A model generated the notes under the pieces. It ran no database searches. It had not been told where the DNA came from and worked only from the letters and a program-made list of their open reading frames with translations. A DNA stretch of 64,000 nt from NCBI GenBank assembly GCA_934141535.1, contig CAKPCH010000001.1, positions 79,341 to 143,340 of the forward strand, given 5' to 3'. Both the position numbers and the translations under genes were made by a program. Every line of letters starts with the position of its first letter. The stretch's first letter is position 1. This document shows, piece by piece, positions 1,838 to 60,960 of the stretch. Source of the DNA: an uncultured Bacilli bacterium. GTDB taxonomy: Bacteria; Bacillota_I; Bacilli_A; RF39; UBA660.

Positions 1838-1839
1838 AA

Positions 1840-10717: not shown

Positions 10718-10727
10718 ATTTTATCAC

Positions 10728-13833: not shown

Positions 13834-13880
13834 TTTTTTACAATTTTTTTTACATTTTTTTTACATTATTATATTTTGAC
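13834..13880. promoter_or_regulatory. three direct TTTACA repeats spaced ~11-12 bp in the divergent intergenic region between the tasA-sipW operon and the VanY genes
   Basis: tttaca at 13837, 13849 and 13860, each followed by a T-run. They lie between two divergently transcribed gene sets. Confidence 0.3.
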
Positions 13881-13924
13881 TTTATAAATAAACAAAACTA
13901 TGGTAGAATAATAATGGTGATAAT

Positions 13925-16028: not shown

Positions 16029-16068
16029 TAAATGCTATCTTTTTTTCATATAATATAATGGTGATAAT

Positions 16069-44206: not shown

Positions 44207-45478
44207 TTACTTTATAACTGATTTAGATAATGTTATTACTGGACGGATACCAAATTTATTTGAAAGTCCAACGTTATAATAATCTATATTGCTATTATTA
44301 CCAACATACCATGCACCAATAGTAACTGTATGTGGAGTACTAGTCCAATATCCATCTACACCTGTTACTGAATGTAAAGCTCCAGATAAATAATCAGTTA
44401 ACCATTTTTGTTCTAAAGTTGGATAGTCTAAATAATTCTTTCCATCAGCGGTTGCTATTTGACTAGCACTTGGAAAACTCACTTCTACTCCTTCTTTATT
44501 AAATATTTCTTTTATATGCCCTAAATAATCTTTTCCTGTTGGAGCACTACTTCCTGTTGTACTTATATTTTTACAAGTTGTGTTATCATCTTCACCATCT
44601 GTACACCAGGAAAGTGTTGTTGGTATATATGAATCTGTATAGTTTTCTTTCATGATTAAACTTACTGTATCTGTATTATTTTCTAGCACAAAGAATGTAT
44701 TTGTGTAACTATCTCCTACTTGGCATGTATATTCATCTCCGTAGTTAAAACTTCCAGTAGGTACGTTTCCTGTTGTGGCAGTAGTTACTCCTGTACAGAT
44801 TGGTTCAGAAGGTAGTGTTGGCATTCCACTTAAACTTGTTGATCCATATGTTAAATAAATACTACCAAATTTTATTGTAAATGGGCCATCGGCTATTGCT
44901 GAACCACTTGTATATTCTATTGTTATTTTTACTAATTCACTATTACTTTTCTTTAATACATGATTTGTTATATTTAGAGTTGTATCAGTATAAGAAGTAC
45001 TTAATACTGTTGTTGTTACTTTTATTCCATTACATGCTGATTCTACCATTGAAGAACTAGTACCTTCTCCAGCTACACATTCTTTAAATACTGACTTACC
45101 ACTAATATTATTAAATACTACACTACTTAAATATGCATCATAACTTCCTTCATTTCTTGCATAAAATGTATACTCTACTTTTTCTCCAGGTGCAGTAAAT
45201 GAAGCACTTAAATTTTTAATTGTTGGATTACCACTATTATCTATTATTGGTGTTCCAGCTTGTGCATTCCCTGTTTTTGTTACACTTACATTAGTTGTTG
45301 AAAGTGATGTACTACTACTTGAAAATACTACTTTAAAATTTCCTGAATCTGGTGTAATTGTCGCATTACTTTTTACTGTTAGAGAACTAGAAAAAGCTGC
45401 AAAAGCTATACTTAAACCTAATACGCTTATTATAGTTATTATTAATATTAATGTTGTATTTTTTTTATTATATCCCAT
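44207..45478 (-). CDS. TasA/camelysin-like protein with a SipW-cognate signal peptide and one C-terminal DUF1566/Fib_succ_major-like module
   Basis: N-terminus TLILIITIISVLGLSIAFAAFSSSLTVKS. TasA-like core FTAPGEKVEYTFYARNEGSYDAYL. The C-terminal ~200 aa are near-identical in design to the modules of the giant paralogs (CTGVTTATTGNVPTGSFNYGDEYTC ... YWTSTP ... GIRPVITLSKSVIK). Confidence 0.75.
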   Translation of the reverse strand: MGYNKKNTTLILIITIISVLGLSIAFAAFSSSLTVKSNATITPDSGNFKVVFSSSSTSLSTTNVSVTKTGNAQAGTPIIDNSGNPTIKNLSASFTAPGEKVEYTFYARNEGSYDAYLSSVVFNNISGKSVFKECVAGEGTSSSMVESACNGIKVTTTVLSTSYTDTTLNITNHVLKKSNSELVKITIEYTSGSAIADGPFTIKFGSIYLTYGSTSLSGMPTLPSEPICTGVTTATTGNVPTGSFNYGDEYTCQVGDSYTNTFFVLENNTDTVSLIMKENYTDSYIPTTLSWCTDGEDDNTTCKNISTTGSSAPTGKDYLGHIKEIFNKEGVEVSFPSASQIATADGKNYLDYPTLEQKWLTDYLSGALHSVTGVDGYWTSTPHTVTIGAWYVGNNSNIDYYNVGLSNKFGIRPVITLSKSVIK

Positions 45479-45640
45479 ATACTTCCTACCCTTCTTTTAT
45501 AGTTTACCACATATTACTATTTTTTTACATTCATTAATAGTATATATGTGCTTTGACTACTCTTCATTATATAACTATCATATCGCAAAAAAAACAAGTA
45601 ATATTTTTGAAAATTAAAAAATTATTTCTTGCTTTTATCA
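45479..45640. promoter_or_regulatory. conserved upstream leader cassette (copy 1 of 4) of the SipW-substrate paralog family
   Basis: Shares ...acccttcttttatagtttaccacatattactatttttttacattcatta... and ...caagtaatatttttg.aaatta with the regions at 54668-54810 and 60824-60960. Confidence 0.4.
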
Positions 45641-45644
45641 CTCT

Positions 45645-48600
45645 TTATTTATGATCTAGTTCAACTAAATTATCATCTAATATAGAATAGAGATATATAT
45701 TTACTTTTTTACCACTTATATTACTTATATAATTTTTATAACCATTAAGTTGTTTTATATAAGCATCATCTACTATATTTTTAGTTTTATAATCTATTAA
45801 CATTATATAATCATCATATTCTAACATAAGATCTATAAAACCATGTTTTATATCATTATTATCATTAAATATAAATTCATATTCTTTATAACAATTAATA
45901 TAATTTTTATCTATATGTTTTAGAAATTTAAGTACGAATACATTATCTGTATTGTTAAAGTCTTCAGTTTCAAATATATAATGAAGCTTTACTCCCTCTT
46001 TCATATTATCTATTTCATTTAAAGTCAATAATTTATTACTATCTTTAGAAAATCTAGTTTGATTTATTATTTCATAATTAATATTATTATATTTATGTTC
46101 TATTTTAATTGAACTTTCTTTTATTTCTTTTTTATAATTATATTTTTTTATTTTATTATAATCTTTTGTAAGTTTTACTTCATTAAAATCTATTTGTTTT
46201 ATATATGGTTCTAATACTGGTTTTATAGAGTTTAACATATCACTTATTCTTTTGTATTCTAATCTGTTTTGATCTGGTACTAAGTGTGTGAATGATTCTA
46301 CCTTATCGTCAAATGGAAGTAATATTATTATTTTTTCTTTAGCACGTGTAAGTGCGACATAAAATAAACGTATTTTTTCACTTATATTATCCCTTATATT
46401 TTTATTTATTAATAAATCTTTTAGTATTGTATTTTTAACTCCTTCTTTTACATATGGAGTAATTATATTAAAACTATCATCTACTAAGAATAAAGATTTT
46501 ATATCTTCATCATTATTTTTTTTAGATAATCCAGAAAAATAACAAATATTATATTCTAACCCTTTACTTTTATGTATATTTAATATTTTAACACTATTAA
46601 CATCTCCACTATTTAATGAATACTCTATTACTTCTTTTTCACTCATTTTATTTAAATATTCACTAAACATTAATGGAGTATAACCTATTTTTGATAGATT
46701 AACACTTAAATCTTTTAAATATTCTATTTTTATTTCACTTTCTTTTATAGAAGATGTAGTTGTTATTTTTTCATAATAATTAAATTTATTTATTATTTCA
46801 TTTAATAAATCTAAATTAGAAAGTTCATCTATATTTATACTTTTACATATTTTAAATAATTCTGTATCATAAAACTTATTACTTTTTAATATATCAAATA
46901 TTTCTTCATCTGATATTTTATTTAAAAATGATCTAGAGCAACTAGTAAAGTAATATTTAAATTCTTGATCTAATTCATTATTATTTATTTTTATTATTAA
47001 ATTTATGAAGTTTTTTATAACTGTTATATCATTACCACTTGTTAATTTTTCATTTTTTATTTGTGATAATGGTATACCTACATATTCAAATATTTTTTTA
47101 TATAAATCAAAACTAGTACCACGATCCATTATTATAGCAAAGTCTTTATACATAGAGTCTCTTAATGTATTTGTTTTCTTATCTACTACCTGATATTTGT
47201 TATCTATTTTTTGTTTTATATCATATGCTATTGTAAATGCTTCTATTTCATCTGTTGTAAATTCTTTTAGATCTTCTTTATTATATGTTAATATATCCAT
47301 AGAGTTATCATGAAGAGTTTTTAAATGTTCTATATAACTAGTATTACCAAAATTCATTCTATGAGATTTACTATATTCTGCATCTCCTACATTATTATCC
47401 ATTATTAAATCAAATATTAAATTTATATTATCTAATACTTCTTTTCTACTTCTAAAGTTTTTTAATAAATCTATTTTTATACCACCCTTATTAATAGAAT
47501 AATCATCATATTTATTTCTAAATATATAAGGATTAGCATGTCTAAATCTATATATTGATTGTTTTATATCTCCTACCATATAAACATTATTAGAGGCTAT
47601 TAAATTAATAAATTCTTCTTGTATATCACTAGTATCTTGATATTCATCTACCATGATTTCATCAAATGAATTTTTTAATTCTTCTTGTATATCTTTATTA
47701 TTTTTTATAACTTTAATAGCCATATGTGCGATATCTTGAAATGTATATAAGTTTTTATCTATTTTATATTTATTAAATCTTTCATCATAAAGATTTATTA
47801 TTTTACAAATAGCTCTTATATAAGGTTTAATAGATAATAGAGATTCTTTTATTTCTTCACTATTTTCAAATCTAGTTAATTCTTTTAAAGTTTTTACTTT
47901 TTTTACAATTATATCTTTATATGTAGCAGCATCTTCACTACAGTTTTTATTTTTTCTTGGACTACCTATTATATTTAAACTAGATTTTATATCTTCATAA
48001 GAGTTAGATTCTAGTAAGTTTTCTATATTTAATGTAGTAATATATTTTTCATCTGTTAAACTAATTAAAGTTTTATATGGATCTTTTATTTCTTCTTTTT
48101 TAGTTATTATAAGTTTATAATACTCATTTATATAATTATTTATATTTTCTTCATTAAAAAATATAGTTTCATAATTTTTTAAATATTCTTGTTTATTTGG
48201 TAATAAATCTAATTTTTTTGATATTTCTTTTACTATCTCTTTTATTTTATCATCTGTTTTTGTACAAAAGTCTCCTACTAATTTTTTAAAGTCAGGATCA
48301 TTATACATTGATAAAAAAACTTCATCTATTATTTCATCTGTTTTTGATACTTCTATTGAAGAATCCATAATTGATATATCTTTAGGTATTTTAAGTAAAT
48401 AGTGATATTTTTTTACTACTGAAAGTGCGAATGAGTCAAATGTTGTAATATAACTTGAATCTATATAATCTAGTTGTTCTTTTAATCCAGCCTTTTTTAT
48501 AGCTTGTCTAATTCTATCTTTCATTTCACCAGCTGCCATATTTGTAAAAGTTAATATTAATAGTCTATTAATGTTTTGACCATTAATAAGTTTTCTTATT

Positions 48601-48707
48601 GTACGTTCTGTAAGAACTGCTGTTTTACCACTTCCAGCTCCTGCAGAAACTATTATATTGGTACCTGTTTTAGTTATTGCTTCTTCTTGTTCTTTTGTAA
48701 AACCCAT
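45645..48707 (-). CDS. addA: AddA-like ATP-dependent helicase/nuclease: UvrD-family helicase with a C-terminal PD-(D/E)XK nuclease. Compact at 1020 aa.
   Basis: N-terminus FTKEQEEAITKTG...AGAGSGKTAVL (UvrD motif I) and motif II DEYQDT. The C-terminus FIDLMLEY...DYKT is nuclease-like. Confidence 0.65.
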   Translation of the reverse strand: MGFTKEQEEAITKTGTNIIVSAGAGSGKTAVLTERTIRKLINGQNINRLLILTFTNMAAGEMKDRIRQAIKKAGLKEQLDYIDSSYITTFDSFALSVVKKYHYLLKIPKDISIMDSSIEVSKTDEIIDEVFLSMYNDPDFKKLVGDFCTKTDDKIKEIVKEISKKLDLLPNKQEYLKNYETIFFNEENINNYINEYYKLIITKKEEIKDPYKTLISLTDEKYITTLNIENLLESNSYEDIKSSLNIIGSPRKNKNCSEDAATYKDIIVKKVKTLKELTRFENSEEIKESLLSIKPYIRAICKIINLYDERFNKYKIDKNLYTFQDIAHMAIKVIKNNKDIQEELKNSFDEIMVDEYQDTSDIQEEFINLIASNNVYMVGDIKQSIYRFRHANPYIFRNKYDDYSINKGGIKIDLLKNFRSRKEVLDNINLIFDLIMDNNVGDAEYSKSHRMNFGNTSYIEHLKTLHDNSMDILTYNKEDLKEFTTDEIEAFTIAYDIKQKIDNKYQVVDKKTNTLRDSMYKDFAIIMDRGTSFDLYKKIFEYVGIPLSQIKNEKLTSGNDITVIKNFINLIIKINNNELDQEFKYYFTSCSRSFLNKISDEEIFDILKSNKFYDTELFKICKSINIDELSNLDLLNEIINKFNYYEKITTTSSIKESEIKIEYLKDLSVNLSKIGYTPLMFSEYLNKMSEKEVIEYSLNSGDVNSVKILNIHKSKGLEYNICYFSGLSKKNNDEDIKSLFLVDDSFNIITPYVKEGVKNTILKDLLINKNIRDNISEKIRLFYVALTRAKEKIIILLPFDDKVESFTHLVPDQNRLEYKRISDMLNSIKPVLEPYIKQIDFNEVKLTKDYNKIKKYNYKKEIKESSIKIEHKYNNINYEIINQTRFSKDSNKLLTLNEIDNMKEGVKLHYIFETEDFNNTDNVFVLKFLKHIDKNYINCYKEYEFIFNDNNDIKHGFIDLMLEYDDYIMLIDYKTKNIVDDAYIKQLNGYKNYISNISGKKVNIYLYSILDDNLVELDHK

Positions 48708-48721
48708 AATCCACTTCCTTT

Positions 48722-51022
48722 TTAAATATCATCATGTTCTACTATTTTTACATAATTAGATTCATTCATAAAACACAAGTCTTTAAAGTTACAAAATTCA
48801 CATCCTATATTTGTTTTATCAAATTTTGGATTTATATCAAATTTAGAATCTAATATATTTTTTAATGTTTCTTTTATTTTAGAACTTGTTAAATTAATTA
48901 AGTCATTAATTTCATCATCACTTAACATATTCTTTAAACTATTAGAACTAAATGAACCATCATTATTAACTTTAATACCATTTATAACTTTACTATCCAT
49001 ATAATTATAATCAAATTGTTCTAAAATTTCTTTATTTGTATTACTATAACCTATAAGTTTTAAACTCTTTTGTTTTTCTTCTTCACTCATATTATCAAGC
49101 ATTATATTTTGCATATAAAATCCTGCAAATTTAATATTATTAAAAATAGAGTGCGCTAAAAACATATATACTGGAAGTTGTAATCCTATACCATATTCTT
49201 TATATTTTAAGCTAGGTTTTTTTATATAAGTTTTATAATCTATAATAGAAGCTATTATATCTTCTTTATCTTTTTTATACATTATTTTATCTATAAAGCC
49301 TATAAAATTTATATTATCAATTAATGGTACACATATATTTTTTTCAGTTTCTATTATATTTAATTTTGAATATTTATTTTGTTCTTTAATAGTATTAATT
49401 AAATAATTTATATTATCTATTGTTCTTTTTATAAAAAACTCTTCATCACTTTTTAATACTATTTCATTAGCACTTAAATATTTATAAACTTCTTCTTCTA
49501 CATTTATAGTATTGTTAGTAGAAAGTTCTAATATATGATGATATATATTTCCAAGTAAAACACTAAATTTATTTATATCTGTTTTTAAATTTAATATTTT
49601 TTCTATATAAAATCTAAAAGCACACCTATTATAATCATCCATTGTAGAAAATGATAAATTAAATGTTTTTAATGATTTAATATAAGTGTTTAATTTTTTT
49701 TTATTTAAACCTGTAAATGATGATGTATAAGTATTGTACTTAACTTCATAATTAGAATTTAAAATACTTAATTTATCAGACTTCTCACCATATTTAATTA
49801 AATTATCAAGTAATTTAGAAAGGGTTAAAATATTTGATAAATCACTATAACTCACTTTTAAATCTATATTTATTTTATTTACTTCACTATCTAATTCTTC
49901 TATTAAACTAGATGGATAGAATGTATTAAAATCAGTTTTTAATTTATATGTTATTATTAAGTTTTTTATATTTTTTATAGATCTTAAAGTTTGTTCTTTT
50001 TCTTTTTTATTTAAATCTACTGTATTATCTAAATAACTAGGTTTAATACTATCATTTATATAATCTTCATCCTTCTTTAATATAGGTATTATTCCTTGAT
50101 TAAATCCTAACATAAATACATATTCATCATCAACAATATAATTTTTATAATCTATTACTTCCACTTCATTAGTATATTTAATATGTTCTATATAAGTATT
50201 ATTTAAATCATTAAATATTAAAGTCTTTAAATCATTTATATCAGTACACCATATATATTTATTACATATATCTACTATTTTTTTATAACTTGTAGTATTA
50301 TTATATTCTTTTATATTTTCTAAAGATTCCTCTATACCTAAATCTAAACTATTAAAAAATTTATTACCTATTATAGTTGATATAACAGGAATATTTTTAT
50401 GCTTATTTATTTTTAAATTATAAAAGCTAAATATTTTTTCTATTATATTTATATAATCTTCGCTAATGTTAGTAAGCTTAATTTTAGAAATATCAATACC
50501 TCTATCTATTAATTTAGAAATAGAATAAGCAACGAATTCAACTTCTTCTTCTATAGTTTGTGCTTCAAATATTTTAGGTGTATAGTTATTATTTTCTTTG
50601 TTTATTATTTTATAATCTATATTACTTAATAAATATTTTTCAAACTTATTTAAATCATAATTATATATAATTATATCTTTTTCTTTAATATATTTTTTAA
50701 ATCTAGTATTAAATATTAATAATTTATTTTCTATTAATTCATTTTTTAAGTTAACTAAAAAATCTAATTTTTTATTATTATATTTTTTATTTTCTATATA
50801 TATTAAATTATCTAAATATTCTTTAGCAACCTCATATTTTAAGTTATATTTTTTTATTACATAAAGAATACTTTTTTCATCATAATCAAAATATAAGTTT
50901 TTTATAAACTCATTAATAGTAAAAAATTTAATGTTTACTAATTGTTTTAAATTTTTTAATATTTGTATTTTTGATTCATTAGATGAAATTATTATTGTAT
51001 TATTTTTTATAATATTTTGCAT
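48722..51022 (-). CDS. addB: AddB-like nuclease subunit (PD-(D/E)XK nuclease with a C-terminal Fe-S cysteine motif). Compact at 766 aa.
   Basis: C-terminal IDKIMYKKD...IIDYKTY (nuclease) and CAFRF...GCEFCNFKDLC four-Cys motif as in AddB. It is adjacent to the addA-like gene and co-oriented with it. Confidence 0.6.
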   Translation of the reverse strand: MQNIIKNNTIIISSNESKIQILKNLKQLVNIKFFTINEFIKNLYFDYDEKSILYVIKKYNLKYEVAKEYLDNLIYIENKKYNNKKLDFLVNLKNELIENKLLIFNTRFKKYIKEKDIIIYNYDLNKFEKYLLSNIDYKIINKENNNYTPKIFEAQTIEEEVEFVAYSISKLIDRGIDISKIKLTNISEDYINIIEKIFSFYNLKINKHKNIPVISTIIGNKFFNSLDLGIEESLENIKEYNNTTSYKKIVDICNKYIWCTDINDLKTLIFNDLNNTYIEHIKYTNEVEVIDYKNYIVDDEYVFMLGFNQGIIPILKKDEDYINDSIKPSYLDNTVDLNKKEKEQTLRSIKNIKNLIITYKLKTDFNTFYPSSLIEELDSEVNKINIDLKVSYSDLSNILTLSKLLDNLIKYGEKSDKLSILNSNYEVKYNTYTSSFTGLNKKKLNTYIKSLKTFNLSFSTMDDYNRCAFRFYIEKILNLKTDINKFSVLLGNIYHHILELSTNNTINVEEEVYKYLSANEIVLKSDEEFFIKRTIDNINYLINTIKEQNKYSKLNIIETEKNICVPLIDNINFIGFIDKIMYKKDKEDIIASIIDYKTYIKKPSLKYKEYGIGLQLPVYMFLAHSIFNNIKFAGFYMQNIMLDNMSEEEKQKSLKLIGYSNTNKEILEQFDYNYMDSKVINGIKVNNDGSFSSNSLKNMLSDDEINDLINLTSSKIKETLKNILDSKFDINPKFDKTNIGCEFCNFKDLCFMNESNYVKIVEHDDI

Positions 51023-51104
51023 ATTACCACCTATATCAATTTTATCAAAAACGAGGTTCTAAGTCTATATATAAATAAAAAGCAAAAGTTTTTTCTTTTG
51101 CTTT

Positions 51105-52538
51105 TTAATAAATTATTTCTATTTTTGATGGAGCATTTGTAGTATTTACTGTTAATATTGTTGTATTTTGTATTTTTGATAATTTTGGTAAATCTACTAA
51201 TTCTTCTGTTCCGCTACTTCTTATAACTTTTCCAAGCTCATAATCTATATAGTCTCCATTCATTAATGGTGAATTCAAACTTACTTTATAACTGATTGGT
51301 TCTACATATGCTTCGTATGCTGTTGGGGTTGTACCTTCTTCTATTTGGAATGTAGAGAATTTTGCTATATCACTTGAAGTAAGCACTAATGTCTGACCTT
51401 TTTTTACAAAATAATCATATCCATCCTCTACAGTAAATGTTGATGATGGTTGTAATTTATCTACTGTTATATATGAAAGAAATGTAAAAGCTGTACTATC
51501 TATTTTATAAAAATATATATATTCTGGAACACTAGAACTATTCTTTAATGTCGCACTTATTACATATTGTTTACCTGGTGTTAATTTATCCGTATATACT
51601 CTTGCTTTAGATTGTGTTGATGAAAATGGATAATCTGTTGTAACTAGTTTTGATGTATTAAAGAAATCTATTTTATTTTTACCACTAAGTGTTAATGGTA
51701 TTTCGTATTTCCCTGTACTGGAATTCAAATCTCCTACTCCACTACTACTTCCATATATTCTATATCCATCTATATAACTTATACTATCATCAACTTTTAT
51801 TTCATTTGTGGTTGATGACAATACTGTTCCAGTTGGTAATGTTGGTGTTCCGCTTAAATTTGTTGAGCCATATGTTAAATATATCTTACCAAATTTTATT
51901 GTAAATGGACCATCTGCTACACTTGAGCCACTTGTATATTCTATTGTTACTTTTACTAATTCACTATTATTCTTTTTTAATACATGATTTGTTATATTTA
52001 GTGTTGTGTCTGTATATGATGTACTTAATACTGTGGTTGTTACCTTTATTCCGTTACAAGCACTTGCTACTAAAGATGATGTTGTACCAGTACCTGCTAT
52101 ACATTCTTTAAATGATGTTTTTCCTTTAATATTATCAAATACTATACTACTTAAATATGCATCGTAACTACCTACGTTTCTTGCGTAAAATGTATACTCT
52201 ATCTTTTCACCAGGTGACGTGAAAGTTGCTTTTAATCCACTTATAGATGGATTACCATCATTATTTATTGTTGGTGTTTCAGCACTCGCATTTCCAGTTT
52301 TCGTTATGCTTACACCAGTTGTTGCAAGTGATGTACTGCTACTTGAAAATACTACTTTAAACTCTCCTGAATCCGGTGTAATAGTCGCATTACTTTTTAC
52401 CGTTAAAGTACTTGAAAAAGCTGCAAATACAATAGATAGTCCAAGCACTGAAATAAGTGTTATTACAAGAGCTAAATTTATATTTCTTTTATTATAATAT
52501 CCCATAGTACTTCCTACCCTTCTTTTATATTTTACCAC
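51105..52538 (-). CDS. TasA/camelysin-like protein with a SipW-cognate signal peptide and a distinct ~260-aa C-terminal domain (no DUF1566 module)
   Basis: N-terminus NLALVITLISVLGLSIVFAAFSSTLTVKS. The TasA-like core is almost identical to the 44207-45478 paralog up to ...TIKFGKIYLTYGSTNLSG, then diverges. Confidence 0.75.
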   Translation of the reverse strand: MVKYKRRVGSTMGYYNKRNINLALVITLISVLGLSIVFAAFSSTLTVKSNATITPDSGEFKVVFSSSSTSLATTGVSITKTGNASAETPTINNDGNPSISGLKATFTSPGEKIEYTFYARNVGSYDAYLSSIVFDNIKGKTSFKECIAGTGTTSSLVASACNGIKVTTTVLSTSYTDTTLNITNHVLKKNNSELVKVTIEYTSGSSVADGPFTIKFGKIYLTYGSTNLSGTPTLPTGTVLSSTTNEIKVDDSISYIDGYRIYGSSSGVGDLNSSTGKYEIPLTLSGKNKIDFFNTSKLVTTDYPFSSTQSKARVYTDKLTPGKQYVISATLKNSSSVPEYIYFYKIDSTAFTFLSYITVDKLQPSSTFTVEDGYDYFVKKGQTLVLTSSDIAKFSTFQIEEGTTPTAYEAYVEPISYKVSLNSPLMNGDYIDYELGKVIRSSGTEELVDLPKLSKIQNTTILTVNTTNAPSKIEIIY

Positions 52539-52639
52539 ATATTTATAATTTATTACAACAATTATTAGAATGAAAAACTTAACTAATTCATTAAAAGAGT
52601 TAAGTTTTTATTTTTTTGTTATAATATACCATATATTTT
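52539..52639. promoter_or_regulatory. upstream leader of the 51105-52538 paralog; only the proximal ~45 bp is shared with the family cassette
   Basis: cttcctacccttcttttatattttaccacatat matches the proximal part of the cassette; the distal part diverges. Confidence 0.3.
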
Positions 52640-54667
52640 TTAATTTAATTCTGATTTAGGAATTGTTATAACTGGACGAATGCCATCATAGTTGGCATCG
52701 ACATCTTGACTATATAATGACCCATCACCTGTCACATCATAAGCTCTCGCATAATTTCCAGTAGAATCCTCAGAATACATAGAATATGAAATGGTCCAAT
52801 AACCAAATACTTCTGATACTGGATGAGTTGCTTCCTCTAAATAATCATGTAGCCATGTTGGTAAATTTTCTAACAAATCATCATTGTCAACATCAACAGT
52901 TAAACCTAAAGCATTTGCTATCTGATCTGCTGTTGGTAATGTTATTTGAGATATATTTGTCCAAGCCGATGTATATTCTTTCAATGCATTAGTAACTGTT
53001 ATTGGTCCTTTATTAGTTCTAATATATCTATTCCAATCACTTTCTGTCCCTCCGGCAGCTATATAATCTTCCTTTGTTACCCATGAAACTGTTGATAGAT
53101 TCGTTGAAGATGATGTTACTGCTTTACCATCTATTCCTACATTTGCATTCATTATTAAACTTACATTATCTCCTGAAGTTTCTAGTACAAAAAATGTTTT
53201 TGAGTCACCATCGCCCACATCACATGTATATTCATCTCCATAAGCATAATTTCCTGTTGGAACACTACCTGTAGTTGCGGTTGTTACTGCTTTACATATA
53301 TAATTTGAACCTTCACTAATTGTGATATCCCCATTAACATTAGGTATTGTTAACAATTTAGTAGCTTCATCATATGTATAATCTATATCTTTTGTTAATA
53401 TTATATCTCCCATAACAATACTTGGAGTACTTGAATTTATAGTTGCTGTATATGTATTACCTTCTATCGATTCTGTATTACAATTAGTACAAGTTATTCC
53501 ATCGTATGTTACTTTAAATATTTGTTTGTAATCAAATCCTATATTAAAAGTTTGTGGTTCACTAGTTACTAAACTGTCACTTATTCCATCTTTATATTTT
53601 ATTGTTACATATATCTTTTTAGTTGCACCATTTGTGCAGTTGTCACCATCACATACTGGTATTGCTTCACCATTACTATAACCATCTATTGTGTAATTTA
53701 AACTAGTATCTGCTCCAAATGCTGATTTAGATATTTTTATTACTGGACGAACACCGTAACTTCTAGAATCACTGACGGAGGGGGTGCCGCCGTTCAAATA
53801 GCCGTTATAGTGAACAATCCACGCGCTGCGAGAGAAATTACCAGGCGTTATTGTCCAATAGCCACTTACGCCTGTTACTGGATGGGTTGTTTTATCTAAA
53901 TAATCATATAGCCATGTTGGAAAACTAGAACTTTTATTTCCTGCTGCTTTATATATTTGAGCTTTTGCAGGAAAACTTACTTCTACTCCAGATTTATTAA
54001 ATATACTTTTTATATGTCCTAAATAATCTTTACCATCAGGAGCATTACTTCCAGTTGCGGTTATATTTTTACAAGTTTTATGACTGGAACCACCATCTGT
54101 ACACCAAGCTGTTGTTTTAGGTACATAAGAATCTGTATAGTTTTCTTTCATAATTAAACTTACTGTATCTGTATTATTTTCTAGCACAAAGAATGTATTT
54201 GTATAACTATCTCCTACTTTGCATTTATATTCATCTCCATAATTAAAACTTCCAGTTGGTACATTGCCTGTTGTAGCTGTAGTCACTGCTGTACAGATTG
54301 AAGAGTGTGTAACTGGAGGAAGTGCTCCCATTTTTACATTACCCAAATTTGTTATATCTACTTCATATTTTACATATGAATCTTTACTTGGTAATACTAC
54401 ATCTCCAAATATATTAGATACGTTATATTCTTCAGTTCTTGATATAGCACCTCCATTTGTAGAATTTACTTTTATACCAGTTAATCTTACTGTTTTATCT
54501 ACTCTTATCATAGCTATATTTTTCATAACTAAGTTTGAACTAAATGAAGCAAATCCTATAGTTAAACTTGTTACTAATATAGCACATATTACTATTAAAT
54601 ATTTTGAGATCTTTTTTCTCTTTATAAAACTAAAATTATTAAATCCATAATTATTTTTATGCCTCAT
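52640..54667 (-). CDS. large (675 aa) SipW-cognate-signal-peptide surface protein with two DUF1566-like modules and Ig-like middle modules
   Basis: N-terminus YLIVICAILVTSLTIGFASFSSNLVMKN. The N-terminal module is shared with the other giant paralogs (VDKTVRLTGIKVNST...VKYEVDITNLGNVKMGAL). Module ends YGVRPVIKISKSAF and DGIRPVITIPKSELN. Confidence 0.8.
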   Translation of the reverse strand: MRHKNNYGFNNFSFIKRKKISKYLIVICAILVTSLTIGFASFSSNLVMKNIAMIRVDKTVRLTGIKVNSTNGGAISRTEEYNVSNIFGDVVLPSKDSYVKYEVDITNLGNVKMGALPPVTHSSICTAVTTATTGNVPTGSFNYGDEYKCKVGDSYTNTFFVLENNTDTVSLIMKENYTDSYVPKTTAWCTDGGSSHKTCKNITATGSNAPDGKDYLGHIKSIFNKSGVEVSFPAKAQIYKAAGNKSSSFPTWLYDYLDKTTHPVTGVSGYWTITPGNFSRSAWIVHYNGYLNGGTPSVSDSRSYGVRPVIKISKSAFGADTSLNYTIDGYSNGEAIPVCDGDNCTNGATKKIYVTIKYKDGISDSLVTSEPQTFNIGFDYKQIFKVTYDGITCTNCNTESIEGNTYTATINSSTPSIVMGDIILTKDIDYTYDEATKLLTIPNVNGDITISEGSNYICKAVTTATTGSVPTGNYAYGDEYTCDVGDGDSKTFFVLETSGDNVSLIMNANVGIDGKAVTSSSTNLSTVSWVTKEDYIAAGGTESDWNRYIRTNKGPITVTNALKEYTSAWTNISQITLPTADQIANALGLTVDVDNDDLLENLPTWLHDYLEEATHPVSEVFGYWTISYSMYSEDSTGNYARAYDVTGDGSLYSQDVDANYDGIRPVITIPKSELN

Positions 54668-54810
54668 ATTTAATTCATACCCTTCTTATATAGTTTACCA
54701 CATATTACTATTTTTTACATTCATTATTGTTATATTTATATAAAAATATTCTTCATTATATTATTATCTTATCACACACAAAAAAACAAGTAATATTTTT
54801 GTAAATTACC
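54668..54810. promoter_or_regulatory. conserved upstream leader cassette (copy 3)
   Basis: Near-identical to 60824-60960 over ~130 bp. It includes the AT-rich near-palindrome atatttatataaaaatat and a -10-like tataat. Confidence 0.4.
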
Positions 54811-54833
54811 CGTTTTTTTACATTTAGTTGTTA

Positions 54834-55778
54834 CTATTTAATTAATTTTTTCTCTTGACTTAATTCTTTTTCAAATTTTTTTACACAACTACCATACTTA
54901 AAAGTTTCAAATGGTATTCCTAATATTCTTAACATTTCTTTATCATTTACTTTAGCATAATTCATATTAAAACAATCTAACAATTCTTCATAATCATTAC
55001 TTTTGTATTTACTATAAAAATATAAACATAATAAATCACTCATAAATTGCTTATACTTATAATCAAAAATTAATTTATCTATGGTTGATATATTATCTGA
55101 TAAATAAGAATCTAAGCTATCATTTAAAATAGAATGATTTAATATTATCTCATTAATAATATTCACTTTTTCATTAAAGGATTTTTCTTTAAAACCATTT
55201 TTTCTTAAATAATCTATAAATTGTAATTCTAAGAATGAAGAAAAACTTTCCATAAAACATGTAGAATAATAATCTGTTTGTTTATACCCATTTAAGTTTT
55301 GAAAAGCATGTCCTAATTCATGTATTAATGTAAGTTTTTTATCGAATGCTGTAGCATCATTTATTATAATATAATTCTTTAACAGACTCTTTATATAAAC
55401 TGTACTTCCACATATATTTTCATCTATAGTAGTATAAATAATATTATGTTTTTTCATCTTAGTATAAAGTTCAAATAAAGGTATATTAGTTGTTATCAAA
55501 AAATCTATAAATATTTCATCTAATACTTTAGAACTTATTCTTTTACTTAGTTTTACTTTTTTGTTTGTATTTTTAAGAAATTTATTATGAGTCATAATAT
55601 CTAAAATTGATTCTTTATTTAAATAATTAGAAGTAAAACCTATACGTTTTTCGACTAATTCTTTTGATGTATTTGTTATAACTTTTTTATCCTTATTTAA
55701 GGAATATAATATATCTTGATCTGTCGTTAAATCTGATAATTTGGAAAGTGTTATTAAGTCATTCTTTTTGGTATTCAT
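54834..55778 (-). CDS. putative zinc metallopeptidase (HExxH motif), family unassigned
   Basis: LTLIHELGHAF with a downstream Glu-containing segment. 314 aa. No signal peptide. Confidence 0.4.
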   Translation of the reverse strand: MNTKKNDLITLSKLSDLTTDQDILYSLNKDKKVITNTSKELVEKRIGFTSNYLNKESILDIMTHNKFLKNTNKKVKLSKRISSKVLDEIFIDFLITTNIPLFELYTKMKKHNIIYTTIDENICGSTVYIKSLLKNYIIINDATAFDKKLTLIHELGHAFQNLNGYKQTDYYSTCFMESFSSFLELQFIDYLRKNGFKEKSFNEKVNIINEIILNHSILNDSLDSYLSDNISTIDKLIFDYKYKQFMSDLLCLYFYSKYKSNDYEELLDCFNMNYAKVNDKEMLRILGIPFETFKYGSCVKKFEKELSQEKKLIK

Positions 55779-55835
55779 ATTATACCCCCCAATACGTACT
55801 TAATATAATACAACAATAAGAAAAAAAAGGCAAGT

Positions 55836-56735
55836 TTACTTGCGTAAGTTCTTGCTAATCATTTGTAGGTTTACAGTTAACTGTTCTATTCTAGAAATAA
55901 TTCTTCTTGCCTTAACTTCATCTACTCCATTTTTAGAATTTGATAAGTGACATTCTAATTCTTTCATATTTAAATTAGAAGTAAAAAATGTAGTTAAATT
56001 ATTATCCATTCTATATTGAAGTAATGGACATAATATTTCATCTCTATTATAAGCAGTAAGTCCTTCAGCACCTATATCATCTATTAAAAGTAGTGGTACT
56101 TTTTTTACATAATCAAATTTTTCTTTAAAATCATCATAGAAAGCTTGTCTTAAAAACTCTGGCCAAAATATAATACAGCTTTTAAAATTTTTAAGTGCTA
56201 ATTCATTAAATATAGCTGCTATTAAATAAGTTTTACCACATCCAAAATTACCGTGCAAATAAAGTCCTTTACAAGGTTTATGTGCTTCATAATCATCTAA
56301 GAAATCCATTAAATAGTTTATTACTTCAAATCTATTTTTATCTGTTTTATATATATTATTAAGAGAAGCATCTTTTACATATTCTGGAGTATTAAAATAT
56401 TTTATATTATCTAAATATTTATTTTTATTATCAAGTGCTTCTTTATATCTACAAGGTTTATAAGTAAAATTAATATTACCATTAACATTAATAGGTAAAT
56501 AACAAAATCCTTCTATTTTATTTTTACAATCTAATAAACATGAACAATTTTTACAATTTTTATATTCTTTACTACACTCTTCTATTACACTAGTATATTT
56601 TTTTAATATAGAAGAATCTAATTTAGTACTATTAACTATTTCTTTAAAGTCTTTATCTTTTAATGCTTCATTATATTCTTTATCTAAATCATATATATTA
56701 TTATTTATATCTAAATCTTCAGTTATATTATGCAT
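55836..56735 (-). CDS. dnaI: primosomal helicase loader DnaI (AAA+ ATPase)
   Basis: N-terminal Cys-rich zinc module (CKNCSCLLDCKN...C). Walker A GNFGCGKTYL. Walker B LLIDDIG. Length and gene order with dnaB fit. Confidence 0.8.
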   Translation of the reverse strand: MHNITEDLDINNNIYDLDKEYNEALKDKDFKEIVNSTKLDSSILKKYTSVIEECSKEYKNCKNCSCLLDCKNKIEGFCYLPINVNGNINFTYKPCRYKEALDNKNKYLDNIKYFNTPEYVKDASLNNIYKTDKNRFEVINYLMDFLDDYEAHKPCKGLYLHGNFGCGKTYLIAAIFNELALKNFKSCIIFWPEFLRQAFYDDFKEKFDYVKKVPLLLIDDIGAEGLTAYNRDEILCPLLQYRMDNNLTTFFTSNLNMKELECHLSNSKNGVDEVKARRIISRIEQLTVNLQMISKNLRK

Positions 56736-56738
56736 AAG

Positions 56739-58013
56739 CTAACCTCTTTTCATACGACTTTCTAACTTTCTTATTTCTTCTTCATTAGCAATATCTTCTT
56801 TTATTTCTTTATTAAACCAATCAGGTGTTATTGATGATTTTTTATTTACTTTTACTGTAACATTTTTCTTTTTCTTATATTCATCTTCAGCTATTTTCAT
56901 AGCATCCTCAACAGTTTCAATACCACTCTTACTCCATTGTGAAGCAATTACTTCTACAAATGATTTAATTAGTTTATTATTATTAATTTTTAATACATAA
57001 TCAATTAATACATTAACAACACCAGGTTTAAGATTAAGATCTATAAGCAAATAAGAAATAATAGCTAAATCTGAACTTGTAGGATTAGAATTTTTATATT
57101 TACTACTTATAAAATCATAAGGACTTGTAGTTTCAAACATGTGTATTATTCTTGATCTATTTGATGTATCTAAATTTTCTTTTCTTAAATATTCTGGTTG
57201 ATTTTTATATATTATACTAGGTAATTTACCTAAGTTATCAAATCTATAGTATTTATTAGCATTCTCTTGTAATAATTTTTTATCTATAGTATGTTTATCA
57301 CTTATAGAATTTCTAATAAGTTCTACCATATCATCATTATCATAATTATAAATGTATGCTATTTTATATAAAAAATCTTTTGTTTCTCTAGTTAGTGATT
57401 TTTTATTTAACATTTCATCACTTATAAATTCTAATATAGTATTTATATCTATCTTAGATAGTATTTCTAATTTTCTATAATTAGATTTTTTTATATCATA
57501 TATTAAGTTTTCATTAATAGGCTCACTCGAAAAAGCAAATACATCACTAAATCTACTAGTTATATCTTCATATTCTCTTAAATTAATTTTTGGTATTTTA
57601 AAGAAACCAATAATTCTATCATATTCTAATTTTCCAACAGCATTAAGGAGTGCTATATTAAGAGCTGGATTGTTTATAAACTCTGATGCACTAATAGGAG
57701 AATATAATTCATATACAAAACTATTAATATTACCTTTTTTTACATATGTTTTAATTAAACCTATTGCTTCTAATTTTACTCTAGCATCCATAAGTTCATT
57801 ATTACTTATCATCATATCTCTAAGTATATGATGATGTGTCCATTCATTAGATAATAATTCCATTTTATCTAAATAAGACCATAATGTATAATATAGACTT
57901 ATTGCTTGTGAACCAATTATTGGTTGATATAAAAGAAATAATAAATTTCTATCTTTATCGCTTAATGTTGTTTTATTTACTACAATAAATGTATCTGCAG
58001 GAAGTATAACCAT
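56739..58013 (-). CDS. dnaB: replication initiation/membrane attachment protein DnaB (Firmicute helicase co-loader, DnaD-like domains)
   Basis: N-terminus LLYQPIIGSQAISLYYTLWSYLD...THHHILRDMMISNNELMDARVKLEAIGLIKTY aligns with B. subtilis DnaB. Confidence 0.7.
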   Translation of the reverse strand: MVILPADTFIVVNKTTLSDKDRNLLFLLYQPIIGSQAISLYYTLWSYLDKMELLSNEWTHHHILRDMMISNNELMDARVKLEAIGLIKTYVKKGNINSFVYELYSPISASEFINNPALNIALLNAVGKLEYDRIIGFFKIPKINLREYEDITSRFSDVFAFSSEPINENLIYDIKKSNYRKLEILSKIDINTILEFISDEMLNKKSLTRETKDFLYKIAYIYNYDNDDMVELIRNSISDKHTIDKKLLQENANKYYRFDNLGKLPSIIYKNQPEYLRKENLDTSNRSRIIHMFETTSPYDFISSKYKNSNPTSSDLAIISYLLIDLNLKPGVVNVLIDYVLKINNNKLIKSFVEVIASQWSKSGIETVEDAMKIAEDEYKKKKNVTVKVNKKSSITPDWFNKEIKEDIANEEEIRKLESRMKRG

Positions 58014-58108
58014 ATTATCACCAACTTACATGTCTATTTTAACATATTTAATAATTAAATAAAATAAAAACTATTAATATAAATTAAAAAAGCAAGGTTA
58101 GACCTTAC

Positions 58109-60823
58109 TTAATTTATTAAATCTTTTGAAATAGTTATTACTGGACGGACACCATACTCGCTAGAATCGTTAACGTTAGAATAATACAAAATATTAGAAT
58201 TATCACCACTCCATGCAACGTTATTAATAGCAGCATTAGGCGTTGTTGTCCAATAGCCATATACTCCTGATACTGGATGTGCTGTATCTATTAAATAATC
58301 AGATAACCATTCTGGTAAACCTCTAATATAATTTTCATCGTCAAATGACTTACTAGAAGCAGTGGCTATTTGACTAGCACTTGGAAAACTCACTTCTACT
58401 CCTTCTATATTAAATATACTTTTTATATGACCTAAATAGTCTTTTCCAGTAAGAGCATTAGATCCAGTCGCTGTTATATTTTTGCAAGTTGTATTATCTT
58501 CTCCTCCATCTATGCACCATGCCAAAGTTTTTGGGACATATGAATCTGTGAAATTTTCTTTCATGATTAAACTTACTGTATCACTAGAATTTTCTAATAC
58601 AAAGAATGTATTGCTATAGTTGTCGCCTACCCGACAAGTGTATTCATCTCCATAATTATAACTTCCACTCGGTACATTGCCTATTATTGCTTCTGTTACT
58701 GCTTTACATCCATATTCTTGAGGTGCTACTACTGACCTAGGTACTTCTATTACTGGACGTAAGCCTATACTACCACCATATATATCATAAGTAGACATTG
58801 AATAATCTGTCATTACTGTATACACTGAATTAGTATCTAATACAAACTGTGTAGCGGTCCAATAGCCTAGATCTGAAGTTCCAGATAACCATTGATAATT
58901 ACAGCCTGTTGTAATATCAGTTTCAGTTTCTTCATCATATTTGCAAGTATCACTTGGTTCAGATGTATTAGTATCAAAATAGAATACTCCTTCTTCATCT
59001 GTAGATACATCAAAAGATGTATTACCAGTAATTCTAGCTACTTCTTCTGCTGTTATTAATCTTGCTTTATATCCTGTATAATCTATTGTATAATTAGGAT
59101 GACTATAATTTGTTGGAGTTAATGTACCTTTCCAAGACGATGTGTCAGTTTTTAATTGATCTAATAAAGAGGTAGGACCATTTGTAACATCATCACTATC
59201 ATTCCAATCTATAAGTTGCGTGGTATTATGATCTAATATCAGATTGACTTTATCTCCACCATCATCATTGAAAACATAAAATTTCATACATCCTGATTTT
59301 ACTTCTGTTTCACTTTGAGATTCAGTGTAATCTGTACAAACTTTTCCAGTATCTACATTAAAATATACAATTTGGCCATTAGAAATTTTTCCAGTGTCTT
59401 CTTTGACCTCTTCTTTAATTGTAATATCGCCATTAACATTAGGGATTGTTAATAGTTTAGTGGTTTCATCATATGTATAGTCAGTATCTTTTGTTAATAA
59501 TGTATAACCCATTGTTACTCTAGGATTTGTTAAACTAATAGTTGAAGTATAAGTATTGCCTTCTACTACTTCACTTATACAATCTGTACAAGTTACTCCA
59601 TCATATGTTACTGTAAATATTTGCTTATAATCAAACCCTATATTAAAACTTTGTGGTTCACTAGTTACTAAACTTTCATCTATTCCATCTTTGTATTTAA
59701 TTGTTACATATATTTTTTTAGTTACACCATTTGTGCAGTTATCACCATCACATACTGGTATTACATCACTTTTATTATAATCATCTATTGTATAATCTAA
59801 ATTATTATTTAAGCCAAACTGTAATTTTGATAAAGTTATAACTGGGCGTACTCCAATACCAAGATCACTAGCTACAGTACTTCCATATCCTAAATGTTCT
59901 GTCGAAATAGTTCCATTTTCAACACAATATGCATAAGTTTTTGAAGCATCTAATAATTTAGAAGTCCAATAACCTAAGACCTCATCAACAACATGTTTAT
60001 TTTCAAACGCAGAATCATATGCTGTATAATCATATAGCCATATTGGTAAACCTGACATTTTATCGCCTGCTGCTGTAGATACTTGATCTCTTGTTGGCAG
60101 TGTTATTTGAGATGATGATATATTTGTCCAAGTTGATGTATATTCTCTCAATGTTTTATTTGCTGTTAATGGGCTCATATTAATATTTTCATTCCATTCA
60201 CTTTCTGTTCCTCCTGCAGCCAGATAATCTTCTTTCGTTAACCAAAATACCTTTGATTTATTTGTTGAAGATGATGTTACCATTTTTCCATCTGTTCCTA
60301 CATTTGAATTCATTATTAAACTTACTGTATCTCCTTTGTTTTCTAATACAAAGAATGTTTTTTCTTCACCATCTCCTACATCACAAATATATTCGTCACC
60401 AACTACAAATTTTCCTTCTGGTACATTACCAGTTGTTGCTGTAGTGGCTGGCATGCATATTTGATTAGAAGTAAGAGCACCCATTTTTACATTACCCAAG
60501 TTTGTTATATCAACTTCATATTTTACATATGAATCTTTACTCGGTAATACTACATCTCCAAATATATTAGATACGTTATATTCTTCAGTTCTTGATATAG
60601 AATTGCCACTTGTAGAATTTACACTAATTCCTGTTAATCTTACTGTCTTATCTACTCTTATCACAGCTATACTTTTCATAACTAGGTTAGCACTCGATGC
60701 AGCAAATCCTATAGTTAAACTTGTTACTAATATAGCACATATTACTATTAAATATTTTGAGATCTTTTTTCTTTTTATAAAACTAAAATTATTAAATCCA
60801 TAATTATTTTTTCTATGCCTCAT
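58109..60823 (-). CDS. large (904 aa) SipW-cognate-signal-peptide surface protein with three DUF1566-like modules; mosaic paralog of 8003-10717 and 52640-54667
   Basis: N-terminus YLIVICAILVTSLTIGFAASSANLVMKS. Module ends IGVRPVITLSKLQF, IGLRPVIEVPRSVV and YGVRPVITISKDLIN. The middle module YFNVDTGKVCTDYTESQSETEVKSGCMKFYVFNDDGGD is shared with the 8003-10717 paralog. Confidence 0.8.
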   Translation of the reverse strand: MRHRKNNYGFNNFSFIKRKKISKYLIVICAILVTSLTIGFAASSANLVMKSIAVIRVDKTVRLTGISVNSTSGNSISRTEEYNVSNIFGDVVLPSKDSYVKYEVDITNLGNVKMGALTSNQICMPATTATTGNVPEGKFVVGDEYICDVGDGEEKTFFVLENKGDTVSLIMNSNVGTDGKMVTSSSTNKSKVFWLTKEDYLAAGGTESEWNENINMSPLTANKTLREYTSTWTNISSSQITLPTRDQVSTAAGDKMSGLPIWLYDYTAYDSAFENKHVVDEVLGYWTSKLLDASKTYAYCVENGTISTEHLGYGSTVASDLGIGVRPVITLSKLQFGLNNNLDYTIDDYNKSDVIPVCDGDNCTNGVTKKIYVTIKYKDGIDESLVTSEPQSFNIGFDYKQIFTVTYDGVTCTDCISEVVEGNTYTSTISLTNPRVTMGYTLLTKDTDYTYDETTKLLTIPNVNGDITIKEEVKEDTGKISNGQIVYFNVDTGKVCTDYTESQSETEVKSGCMKFYVFNDDGGDKVNLILDHNTTQLIDWNDSDDVTNGPTSLLDQLKTDTSSWKGTLTPTNYSHPNYTIDYTGYKARLITAEEVARITGNTSFDVSTDEEGVFYFDTNTSEPSDTCKYDEETETDITTGCNYQWLSGTSDLGYWTATQFVLDTNSVYTVMTDYSMSTYDIYGGSIGLRPVIEVPRSVVAPQEYGCKAVTEAIIGNVPSGSYNYGDEYTCRVGDNYSNTFFVLENSSDTVSLIMKENFTDSYVPKTLAWCIDGGEDNTTCKNITATGSNALTGKDYLGHIKSIFNIEGVEVSFPSASQIATASSKSFDDENYIRGLPEWLSDYLIDTAHPVSGVYGYWTTTPNAAINNVAWSGDNSNILYYSNVNDSSEYGVRPVITISKDLIN

Positions 60824-60960
60824 ATTTAATTCATACCCTTCTTTTATAGTTTACCACAAAATACCATATTTTTACATTCATTATTGTTATATTTATATAA
60901 AAATATTCTTCATTATACTATAATATAATAACAAAAAAAGAAAAAACAAGTAGTTTTTAA
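60824..60960. promoter_or_regulatory. conserved upstream leader cassette (copy 4)
   Basis: See the entry for 54668-54810; the two are near-identical over ~130 bp. Confidence 0.4.

Follow-up and report, generated by a model that had tools for sequence, protein, structure and literature searches.

A modular, mosaic family of candidate fibre subunits with lectin-like heads, dispersed among the core genes of an uncultured gut bacterium of the Bacilli

In type 1 pili, the FimH protein joins the fibre through a pilin-like domain that is fused to a ligand-binding lectin domain, and diversification by gene conversion is established for multigene families of surface proteins. Extracellular fibres of the TasA superfamily are usually regarded as matrix scaffolds. 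Here, we analysed a stretch of 64,000 nucleotides (nt; hereafter the window) from an uncultured Bacilli bacterium (GenBank assembly GCA_934141535.1, contig CAKPCH010000001.1, positions 79,341 to 143,340), an organism known solely from human and animal gut metagenomes. The window carries six paralogous genes, designated A to F, in which a fibre-subunit domain appears to be used as the platform for lectin-like heads; the set of heads is large, changes rapidly and is also mounted on type IV pilins. We favour, with moderate confidence, the reading that the products of these genes are secreted and serve as subunits and accessory proteins of an extracellular fibre of the TasA/AbpX type, with lectin-like heads and a changing repertoire. 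Each component is known by itself; to our knowledge, the literature does not describe them together: heads that are inserted in a subunit fold and that also occur on type IV pilins, autonomous cassettes that are dispersed, and an apparent footprint of a diversity-generating retroelement (DGR).

The likeness to FimH is a functional analogy and lies in the union of a fibre-joining domain with a lectin domain. The proteins are not homologous, the present system includes neither a chaperone nor an usher, and its lectin modules are C-terminal or loop-inserted and come in many alternative copies. Closer in composition are the AbpX-type fibre loci of the TasA superfamily, which encode a signal peptidase I with 10 transmembrane (TM) segments, a DUF5305 accessory protein, minor subunits and tip proteins (bioRxiv 10.64898/2026.01.04.697558). 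The window resembles these loci in that a small beta-sandwich subunit adjoins a signal peptidase I of about ten TM segments, a DUF5305 protein of two TM segments and larger minor or tip-like proteins, and an aromatic residue occupies mature position +2 here too, except in the F protein of the window. It differs in the composition of A, which has a pI of 4.6 and 10.5% Asp+Glu compared with ~4.0 and ~15% in AbpX, and in its accessory subunits, which are multiplied, lectin-headed and scattered beyond the locus. The presence of a SipW-type peptidase in the operon also recalls the TapA-SipW-TasA locus of B. subtilis and the SipW-BsaA/B/C locus of C. perfringens. Resemblance to TasA extends to the cleavage context (W-A↓A-F-N-D, as in mature TasA of the fibre structure 8AUR, versus F-A↓A-F-S-S in this family) and to the strand motif PGD-x5-F-x-x-N-x-G. 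Unlike the window, the TapA-SipW-TasA and BsaA/B/C loci have not been described with lectin-headed paralogs or dispersed cassettes. A functional link between TasA-like matrix proteins and type IV pilus genes has been described in C. perfringens (PMC11580942).

The operon of the window lies on the minus strand in the order A, signal peptidase I, DUF5305 protein and B, and this order is conserved in a locus from a related Bacilli metagenome-assembled genome (MAG; locus L027). Gene A (13083–13742) encodes 219 aa that comprise the core only and, as the first gene of the operon, is the candidate for the major fibre subunit. The peptidase (11871–13001) is a signal peptidase I of the archaeal/SipW type with ~9–10 N-terminal TM segments before the catalytic domain, as indicated by its hydropathy segments, its SGSM/HRV/GDA motifs and a TIGR02228 score of 94.6 bits (cutoff 51.85); the SipW model NF046067 gave 69 bits, under its cutoff of 190. 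The DUF5305 membrane protein (10728–11855) has two TM segments and a Pfam DUF5305 score of 66.1 bits (cutoff 29), and proteins of this type have been proposed to act as accessory subunits of the signal peptidase (bioRxiv 10.64898/2026.01.04.697558). B (8003–10717, 904 aa) is composed of an N-domain with an inserted module Da (9752–10357), an Ig-like segment and the modules Db (8606–9355) and Dc (8006–8599).

The first-pass annotation had placed four further paralogs on the minus strand beyond this operon, and we recovered open reading frames (ORFs) for all four at those positions. C (44207–45478, 423 aa) joins an A-type core to a Dc module (44210–44803), and its length was 423 aa in 7/7 loci compared, in one of which the gene is truncated by the end of the contig. 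D (51105–52505) joins an A-type core to a C-terminal domain of 241 aa for which neither Pfam nor PHROG returned a match; its start is more likely the ATG at 52505, giving 466 aa as in public assemblies, than the GTG at 52538. E (52640–54667, 675 aa) has an N-domain with an inserted Dc (53717–54298), followed by an Ig-like segment and Da (52643–53311), and F (58109–60823, 904 aa) repeats the architecture of B with Da inserted at 59816–60460, Db at 58721–59410 and Dc at 58112–58720. In all-versus-all BLASTP comparisons, the cores of A, C and D were 36–72% identical, B and F were colinear with 62% identity over 904 aa, and every module of E had a counterpart in B and F. This paralogy and the differing module order bear out the original description of an expanded, modular and mosaic family. 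All six members named in that description are real paralogs; the family itself is larger than six, and its D modules also occur on type IV pilins.

The six proteins were further said to carry the same signal peptide. All share a basic N-terminus, a hydrophobic helix and the motif (I)(G/A/V)-F-A-(A/S)-(F/S)-S, and the identity is approximate, with one variant in A/C/D and another in B/E/F. The class III signal G-F-T-L-I-E (N_methyl) is absent from all six window proteins. In F, the signal region at 60700–60715 reads G-F-A-A-S-S-A-N-L and has no aromatic residue at the conserved position that follows the putative cleavage site.

Mapping of modules on 75 homologs changed the view of how the larger proteins are built. 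The window contains nine D modules of three subtypes (Da, Db and Dc), which are mutually homologous (hhalign probability 98.6–100%), and both their content and their order differ among paralogs: B and F read N-Da-mid-Ig-Db-Dc and E reads N-Dc-mid-Ig-Da. In the distant homologs P0025–P0034 (~710 aa), the N-module runs straight into the first half of the middle module to give one domain of ~140 aa. Because E aligns by BLASTP to the contiguous P0026 in two segments (E 17–114 to P0026 10–108, and ~E 318–451 to P0026 ~113–242), the D module between them (~200 aa, E 120–317) is an insertion into a domain loop. A whole domain is inserted in this way into the N-domain of B, E and F, and in P0009–P0014 and P0024 a D module is inserted at another, earlier loop. 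What had been annotated as a separate N-terminal beta-module of ~110 aa is actually half of a domain that is completed by the first ~67 aa of the middle module. The Ig-like middle module loses these residues to the N-domain, and its remaining ~68 aa (KVTYDG...GDITI) form a small all-beta domain according to the secondary structure of the AlphaFold2 (AF2) model. Homology of the N-domain to the core of A, C and D (hhalign 94.6%, E = 7e-8) covers the signal region together with the first ~100 residues. Near-identical blocks swapped between paralogs, also claimed at first, were not found within the window. The best block reached 92% nt identity over 300 nt (the 5' ends of E and F) and the next best 85% over 335 nt (Dc of C and Dc of E), and the YFNVDTGKVCT block thought to have been exchanged between B and F is merely part of the colinear Db module, ~50% identical at the amino acid level.

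The DUF1566/Lcl_C and DUF6273 domains have C-type-lectin-like folds (PMC11162425; PMC10743442; PMC6642488). In the Legionella adhesin Lcl, the domain binds glycosaminoglycans (PMC11162425), and in phages and bacteria DUF1566/DUF6273 domains are the commonest targets of DGRs (PMC10743442; PMC6642488; PMC11661182). With this group, which includes Legionella Lcl, DGR variable proteins and phage tentaclins, the D modules share a C-terminal GYW...G-V-R-P-V signature, and their Pfam scores range from sub-threshold to threshold. They resemble DGR variable proteins in a hypervariable loop with NNC codons just before the last strand, and ligand binding, the role in Lcl, would be their role here as well. 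They differ from all of these in being mounted on or inserted into a TasA-like core. The whole of B scored 42.9 bits with Pfam DUF6273 (cutoff 23.5) and 25.9 bits with Lcl_C, under the cutoff of 34.9; single D modules gave 14–20 bits, and only whole B exceeded a gathering score. The DUF1566-like modules of the first-pass annotation thus hold as homologous modules that touch DUF6273/Lcl_C, mostly below the Pfam cutoffs. In the AF2 model of E, the D modules have a predicted local distance difference test score (pLDDT) of 80–90.

The same heads occur on a second type of filament protein. On a 159-kb contig of the conspecific strain L002 (locus L045), canonical type IV pilins with the N-terminus GFTLIELLAV (Pfam N_methyl) carry Da or Dc modules that are 60–75% identical to those of E. 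In another locus (L103), a pilin-like gene with a D module adjoins a paralog of the family, and in a third (L057), the paralog is adjoined by N_methyl pilin-like genes. That the heads are common to two unrelated filament scaffolds supports a displayed, ligand-binding role. The runs of pilin-like genes beside the dispersed paralogs span 11394–14493 in L045, 12707–15479 in L057 and 5234–6766 in L103, and include one gene with two D-like modules; a sortase-domain protein is encoded nearby in L103.

Two Dc modules contain a patch of NNC codons that resembles the variable region (VR) of a DGR, one in Dc of B (8042–8137, minus strand, aa 861–892) and one in the inserted Dc of E (53753–53842, minus strand, aa 276–305). 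The patches are sharply bounded and lie between the GYW and RPV motifs of Dc. Codons ending in C account for 15/32 codons of the B patch compared with 54/872 in the rest of the gene (Fisher p = 8e-10) and for 14/30 codons of the E patch compared with 32/645 (Fisher p = 4e-10); this corresponds to 47% in the patches, 5–6% in the rest of these genes and 2.6% in housekeeping genes. The B patch is also the most variable stretch among cluster members. Alignment of 12 such regions of the species revealed a fixed framework (GCG TGG .. GTT ... GGC ... TTG ... GTC ... GGT GTC CGT CCA) interspersed with NN(C/T) codons, in which positions 1–2 are near-maximally variable, with an entropy far above that of position 3. 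Written out as it would fit a template repeat (TR), the framework reads GCGTGG-AAT-GTT-CAC-TAT-AAC-GGC-AAC-TTG-AAC-AAC-AAC...GGTGTCCG. By their codon pattern, the NNC patches look like the AAC-to-NNC footprint of mutagenic retrohoming by a DGR, at the classic position in the lectin fold, and we interpret them as products of DGR activity, recent or fossil, that recombination now redistributes.

Genuine DGRs were found in related MAGs. In L027, a complete DGR (287–3422) precedes the homologous A-SPase-DUF5305-B operon (SPase, signal peptidase) by 3 kb, with a VR at 287–553, TR-like copies at 1237–1823, an Avd-like (bAvd) ORF and a reverse transcriptase (RT) at 2295–3422. In L106, a DGR at 5951–11143 comprises five tandem TR copies (~8010–9500), bAvd and RT, with a target of 670 aa beside addAB; the mismatches between TR1 and VR over 102 nt all fall at TR adenines. 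The N-terminus of this target, GTIGISYAYW, looks SipW-type too, and a type II-A CRISPR-Cas9 locus follows the DGR. In a further locus (L098), a non-coding, AAC-rich and TR-like copy of a D tail (5005–5115, minus strand) lies 270 nt downstream of the GC-rich variable region of a pilin-D gene (5380–5513); an inverted repeat is located between the two, and no RT is found nearby. As a TR, this copy was rejected, with adenine-only mismatches confined to its first half.

A different emphasis can be considered, namely that an active DGR elsewhere in the genome acts in trans as the main diversifier and rewrites the Dc binding loops of many TasA-like and pilin-like genes. The patch occupies exactly the expected place between GYW and RPV, with NNC codons at p ~1e-9, in modules that touch the classic DGR target folds DUF1566/DUF6273; in a genome of 24% GC such a patch should decay fast, and so it is probably recent. 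The bAvd, RT and TR cassettes of related MAGs stand beside the same operon (L027) or beside addAB (L106), and where strains differ in the E patch, one of the haplotypes in most cases has an A. Against this, we detected no TR either in the window (search for extra copies) or in ~0.7 Mb of conspecific and related loci (nhmmer), and no RT in the same sequences (motif scan), two results that also count against the DGR part of our own interpretation. Two scans of viral contigs for RT or TR gave chance hits or none, one metagenome scan returned 44 loci without an RT, and look-ups of the RT homologs P0147 and P0149 led to a real DGR in another species and to an uninformative 2.7-kb contig. Moreover, the patches differ from each other by indels and framework changes and cannot all fit one TR; only 2–3 haplotypes exist within clusters at 90%, and their differences reach outside the patch, which points to recombination; and several Dc modules, those of C and F, have lost the C-rich signature. 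We regard an active DGR in the role of main diversifier as possible though unlikely. Somewhat more speculative, and in our view doubtful, is the extended proposal that one trans-acting DGR rewrites the ligand-binding loop in at least a dozen dispersed genes of both the TasA-like and the type IV pilin systems, with gene conversion then spreading the variants between paralogs; if true, the fibre-tip lectins of a gut commensal would diversify on two tiers.

Returning to the fibre itself, we propose that the dedicated ~10-TM signal peptidase I of the operon, with its DUF5305 partner, probably cleaves the Sec-type N-terminus at its end, F-A↓(A/S)-F-S-S. A, consisting of the core only, would be the likely major subunit and would polymerise by donor-strand complementation. 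B to F, which keep the A-like N-terminal strand and beta-sandwich, would act as alternative minor, tip or decorating subunits. B, C, E and F carry one to three D modules, read as C-type-lectin-like (DUF1566/Lcl_C/DUF6273 superfamily), and D carries an unrelated domain; the heads would present ligand-binding surfaces in a FimH-like manner, as on donor-strand pili. The AF2 model of A is a beta-sandwich (pLDDT 70.5), and a Foldseek search with it ranked the TasA fibre 8aur third among distinct folds (probability 0.93). The conserved N-terminal strand has a pLDDT below 50 in both monomer models (A and E), which would be the behaviour expected of an unpaired donor strand. The A-type core defines a large unnamed family with 1661 clusters at 50% identity, mostly of 205–240 aa (phmmer).

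Several results weigh against this interpretation. The acidic residue at position 4, which defines AbpX and is also present in TasA, is replaced by Ser here. We found no sequence link of A to TasA, AbpX or any PDB chain: profile searches of the PDB, including the solved AbpX and TasA chains, were empty, hhalign of our alignment A4 with TasA gave a probability of 2.7%, and Pfam Peptidase_M73 did not match A, C, D or any of 90 A-like relatives. More generally, the window differs from the B. subtilis and C. perfringens systems in that its proteins are not assigned to a family by the Pfam and NCBIfam models for TasA or by the SipW equivalog models. The NCBIfam model of the SipW-cognate signal (TIGR04088) had no match at E <= 10 in the six N-termini, so that the SipW-cognate character claimed in the first-pass annotation is suggested by the adjacent peptidase and not by the signal model. 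Generic beta-sandwiches score similarly to 8aur in Foldseek, both AF2 models are moderate (pLDDT ~70), the Foldseek hits of the multi-domain, 675-aa E model were meaningless and gave no usable fold match, and the lectin fold of the D modules is suggested by weak Pfam matches and by the literature. The TasA-like core proposed earlier consequently has, at most, the predicted fold, the operon context and the cleavage motif on its side and falls at the level of sequence models; we use "TasA-like" for how the proteins probably work, not for family membership by sequence.

An alternative is that the six proteins are independent, monomeric lectin-like adhesins, secreted or at the surface, that neither polymerise nor join a fibre, with an N-terminal segment that is an ordinary signal peptide or an uncleaved membrane anchor and an N-domain that serves as a stalk. 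TasA membership is absent at the sequence level, and the structural matches are to generic beta-sandwiches. C, D, E and F form transcription units separate from the operon, every one behind a conserved promoter of its own, and F of the window, with F-A-A-S-S, is without the aromatic residue. On the other hand, the proteins have a conserved N-terminal strand, cleavage-like motif and core in common with A, and A itself is small, consists of the core only and shares its operon with a dedicated signal peptidase I and DUF5305, an arrangement characteristic of TasA-superfamily fibres. Single-domain proteins of ~210 aa make up the large family of the A-type core, as fits a polymerising subunit, and an identical type of head is found on pilins, that is, on filament subunits. 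We consider the monomeric alternative improbable. If the fibre reading is confirmed, TasA-type fibres would acquire an adhesin-display function comparable to that of FimH-tipped pili, the window would provide a natural case of whole-domain insertion into a fibre subunit, and the evolution of an adhesin repertoire at strain level would become directly testable, whether by gene conversion, by cassette turnover or possibly by DGR mutagenesis.

Evidence that the repertoire is changing comes from five conspecific contigs, in which housekeeping genes are mostly 99–100% identical to the window (lowest, 98.5%), whereas E differs by up to 62 single-nucleotide polymorphisms (SNPs) between strains, in clusters. 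One such cluster is a gene-conversion tract in E (nt 121–220 of the gene, 54448–54547, minus strand) that covers the putative cleavage site and the first strand. In L003, this tract differs by 19 SNPs and E is 100% identical to its paralog F over 121 nt. The reciprocal tract lies in F (nt 124–223, 60601–60700, minus strand), where L010 has E-type bases at 19/19 homologous sites; there, conversion gives F back the sequence F-A-S-F-S-S. The two tracts are non-reciprocal conversions in opposite directions. Among ~22 contigs covering the F locus, F encodes 904 aa in most and 903 aa in some, is absent in one, and in others is represented by an 887-aa mosaic allele whose first D module is of the Dc type instead of the Da type. 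Finally, the Dc tail and 3' flank of B are 93% identical to those of another paralog (P0047) over 720 nt, with the last 75 aa identical, and in other strains B and P0047 share a different tail; tails that are shared and yet strain-specific indicate concerted evolution. The ongoing recombination suggested at first is therefore borne out by strain comparison, and not by the window itself. On our reading, the repertoire changes as modules are shuffled, short tracts are converted between paralogs, cassettes are gained and lost, and alleles are replaced between strains, with DGR-type adenine mutagenesis of the Dc binding loop probably contributing, at least historically. Gene-converting families of surface proteins elsewhere resemble this one in their many paralogs, common 5' ends and promoters, short-tract conversion and upstream homopolymers; they differ from it in that the window has no silent-cassette/expression-site architecture and no invertase.

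The strain comparison draws throughout on short-read metagenome assemblies, which speaks against placing full weight on these differences, and the conversions and the presence or absence of F might be artefacts of assembly across paralogous repeats. Exact runs of at least 70 nt shared by E and F flank the tract, making a switch of the de Bruijn path possible, and every comparison locus is a metagenome contig. However, L003 is non-reciprocal, with both E and F of the F type, and its path goes back to E-specific sequence on both sides; the opposite state is seen in another sample (L010); and converted protein variants recur in several contigs (P0001, four members). The deletion of F is clean-edged within a 25.8-kb contig that has both flanks intact, and the 887-aa allele is on a 159-kb contig that is represented in two samples. 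An artefact of assembly is thus very unlikely. We can practically discard the idea that the shared blocks are mere low-complexity similarity without conserved domain boundaries, the outcome named in the first-pass annotation as refuting it: the proteins are rich in Ser/Thr/Asn/Gly and mostly without Pfam matches, but our all-versus-all BLASTP and module map gave colinear matches with E-values down to 0 and no masking artefacts, boundaries that agree in more than 70 homologs, hhalign E-values of 8e-16 to 2e-57 between module classes, and recurrent invariant Cys/Trp/Tyr/Pro motifs.

The family extends beyond the window. C-like paralogs of 426 and 425 aa are encoded beside ArgS and RelA in L045, a 422-aa paralog beside GatCAB and Obg in L057, and a 425-aa paralog beside PGK, Spo0A and MutS in L103. 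Cluster members of the 422-, 425- and 427-aa paralogs are found on the same 246,860-bp contig as B, C and E of the window, and the family has at least 10 members on the chromosome. Within the window, C, D, E and F are autonomous promoter-gene-terminator cassettes between core genes. A conserved upstream element (promoter/5' untranslated region) precedes F at 60824–60957 (minus strand), with copies at ~45479–45560 (C), 52506–52590 (D) and 54668–54800 (E). It was recovered as the repeat families D9 and D16, with the conserved string AATGAATGTAAAAA..TATGTGGTAAACTATAAAAGAAGGGTA..ATG, and includes an extended -10-like sequence TGGTAAACT and a ribosome-binding region AAGAAGGGTA; the sequence upstream of A differs. 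A promoter scan was uninformative in DNA of 24% GC and gave fewer matches than shuffled sequence. Terminator-like hairpins end the F cassette (58090–58110, minus strand) and lie at the end of D (51076–51107). The strain without F has a clean yunB/dnaB junction from which exactly promoter, gene and terminator are gone. A motif, TGTAAAAA(A), occurs in three tandem copies upstream of A (13743–13930) and once each in the elements of C (45479–45560), E (54668–54800) and F (60824–60957), and could be the site of a shared regulator.

The comparison with phase-variable adhesin families drawn in the first-pass annotation found no counterpart in the tract, which has no invertible element and no recombinase nearby and, as homopolymers, only upstream tracts of T6–T8. 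The sole recombinase of the window is a tyrosine recombinase of the Phage_integrase family, Xer-like by its size, at 1840–2754, far from the tract. The T-tracts of T6–T8 upstream of C, D and E vary by ~1 nt between otherwise near-identical strains. Upstream of a 425-aa paralog outside the window, a poly-T of T17 in L045 (~9942–9958) corresponds to T12 in L046 (~4958–4969) for the same protein; this difference may reflect slipped-strand regulation, and we note it as a lead and not as evidence of switching.

The window has ~24% GC, and nearly all its genes are on the minus strand. Exact matches to its proteins were found in human-gut metagenome assemblies (Hadza and others) on contigs of up to 247 kb, and MAGs with relatives of the family come from the gut of human, goat, roe deer, rabbit and mouse. 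The core genes around the family encode PriA, MraZ/MraW, penicillin-binding proteins, MraY, SecDF, LexA, TruB, PolA, AddAB, DnaB/DnaI and YunB. The interleaving of the paralogs with addAB-like and dnaB-dnaI genes, noted at first, is confirmed by Pfam, with UvrD-helicase/PDDEXK_1 for the addAB-like pair, DnaB_2 for dnaB and weaker AAA/DnaI_N matches for dnaI. An Rfam scan of both strands of the 64 kb returned no family at the gathering threshold. A PHROGs search gave a single weak match, and a prophage origin is unsupported. A remnant of an ISL3-family transposase (7337–7678, plus strand; Pfam DDE_Tnp_ISL3, E = 3e-7) occupies the gap of ~1 kb that separates priA from the 3' end of B. On the opposite strand, immediately upstream of the operon, three tandem paralogs of VanY-type D-Ala-D-Ala carboxypeptidase (322, 386 and 210 aa) are encoded at 13925–16701 (plus strand). 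A 544-aa protein with a single TM segment, encoded two genes upstream of F (62238–63872, minus strand), has a sub-threshold DUF5305 score (19.5 bits, cutoff 29) and may be a second peptidase-accessory-like protein. Between E and dnaI, a 314-aa protein (54834–55778, minus strand) with a HELGH zinc-peptidase-like motif is kept in all strains, and a weak DUF6055 hit is its sole Pfam match.

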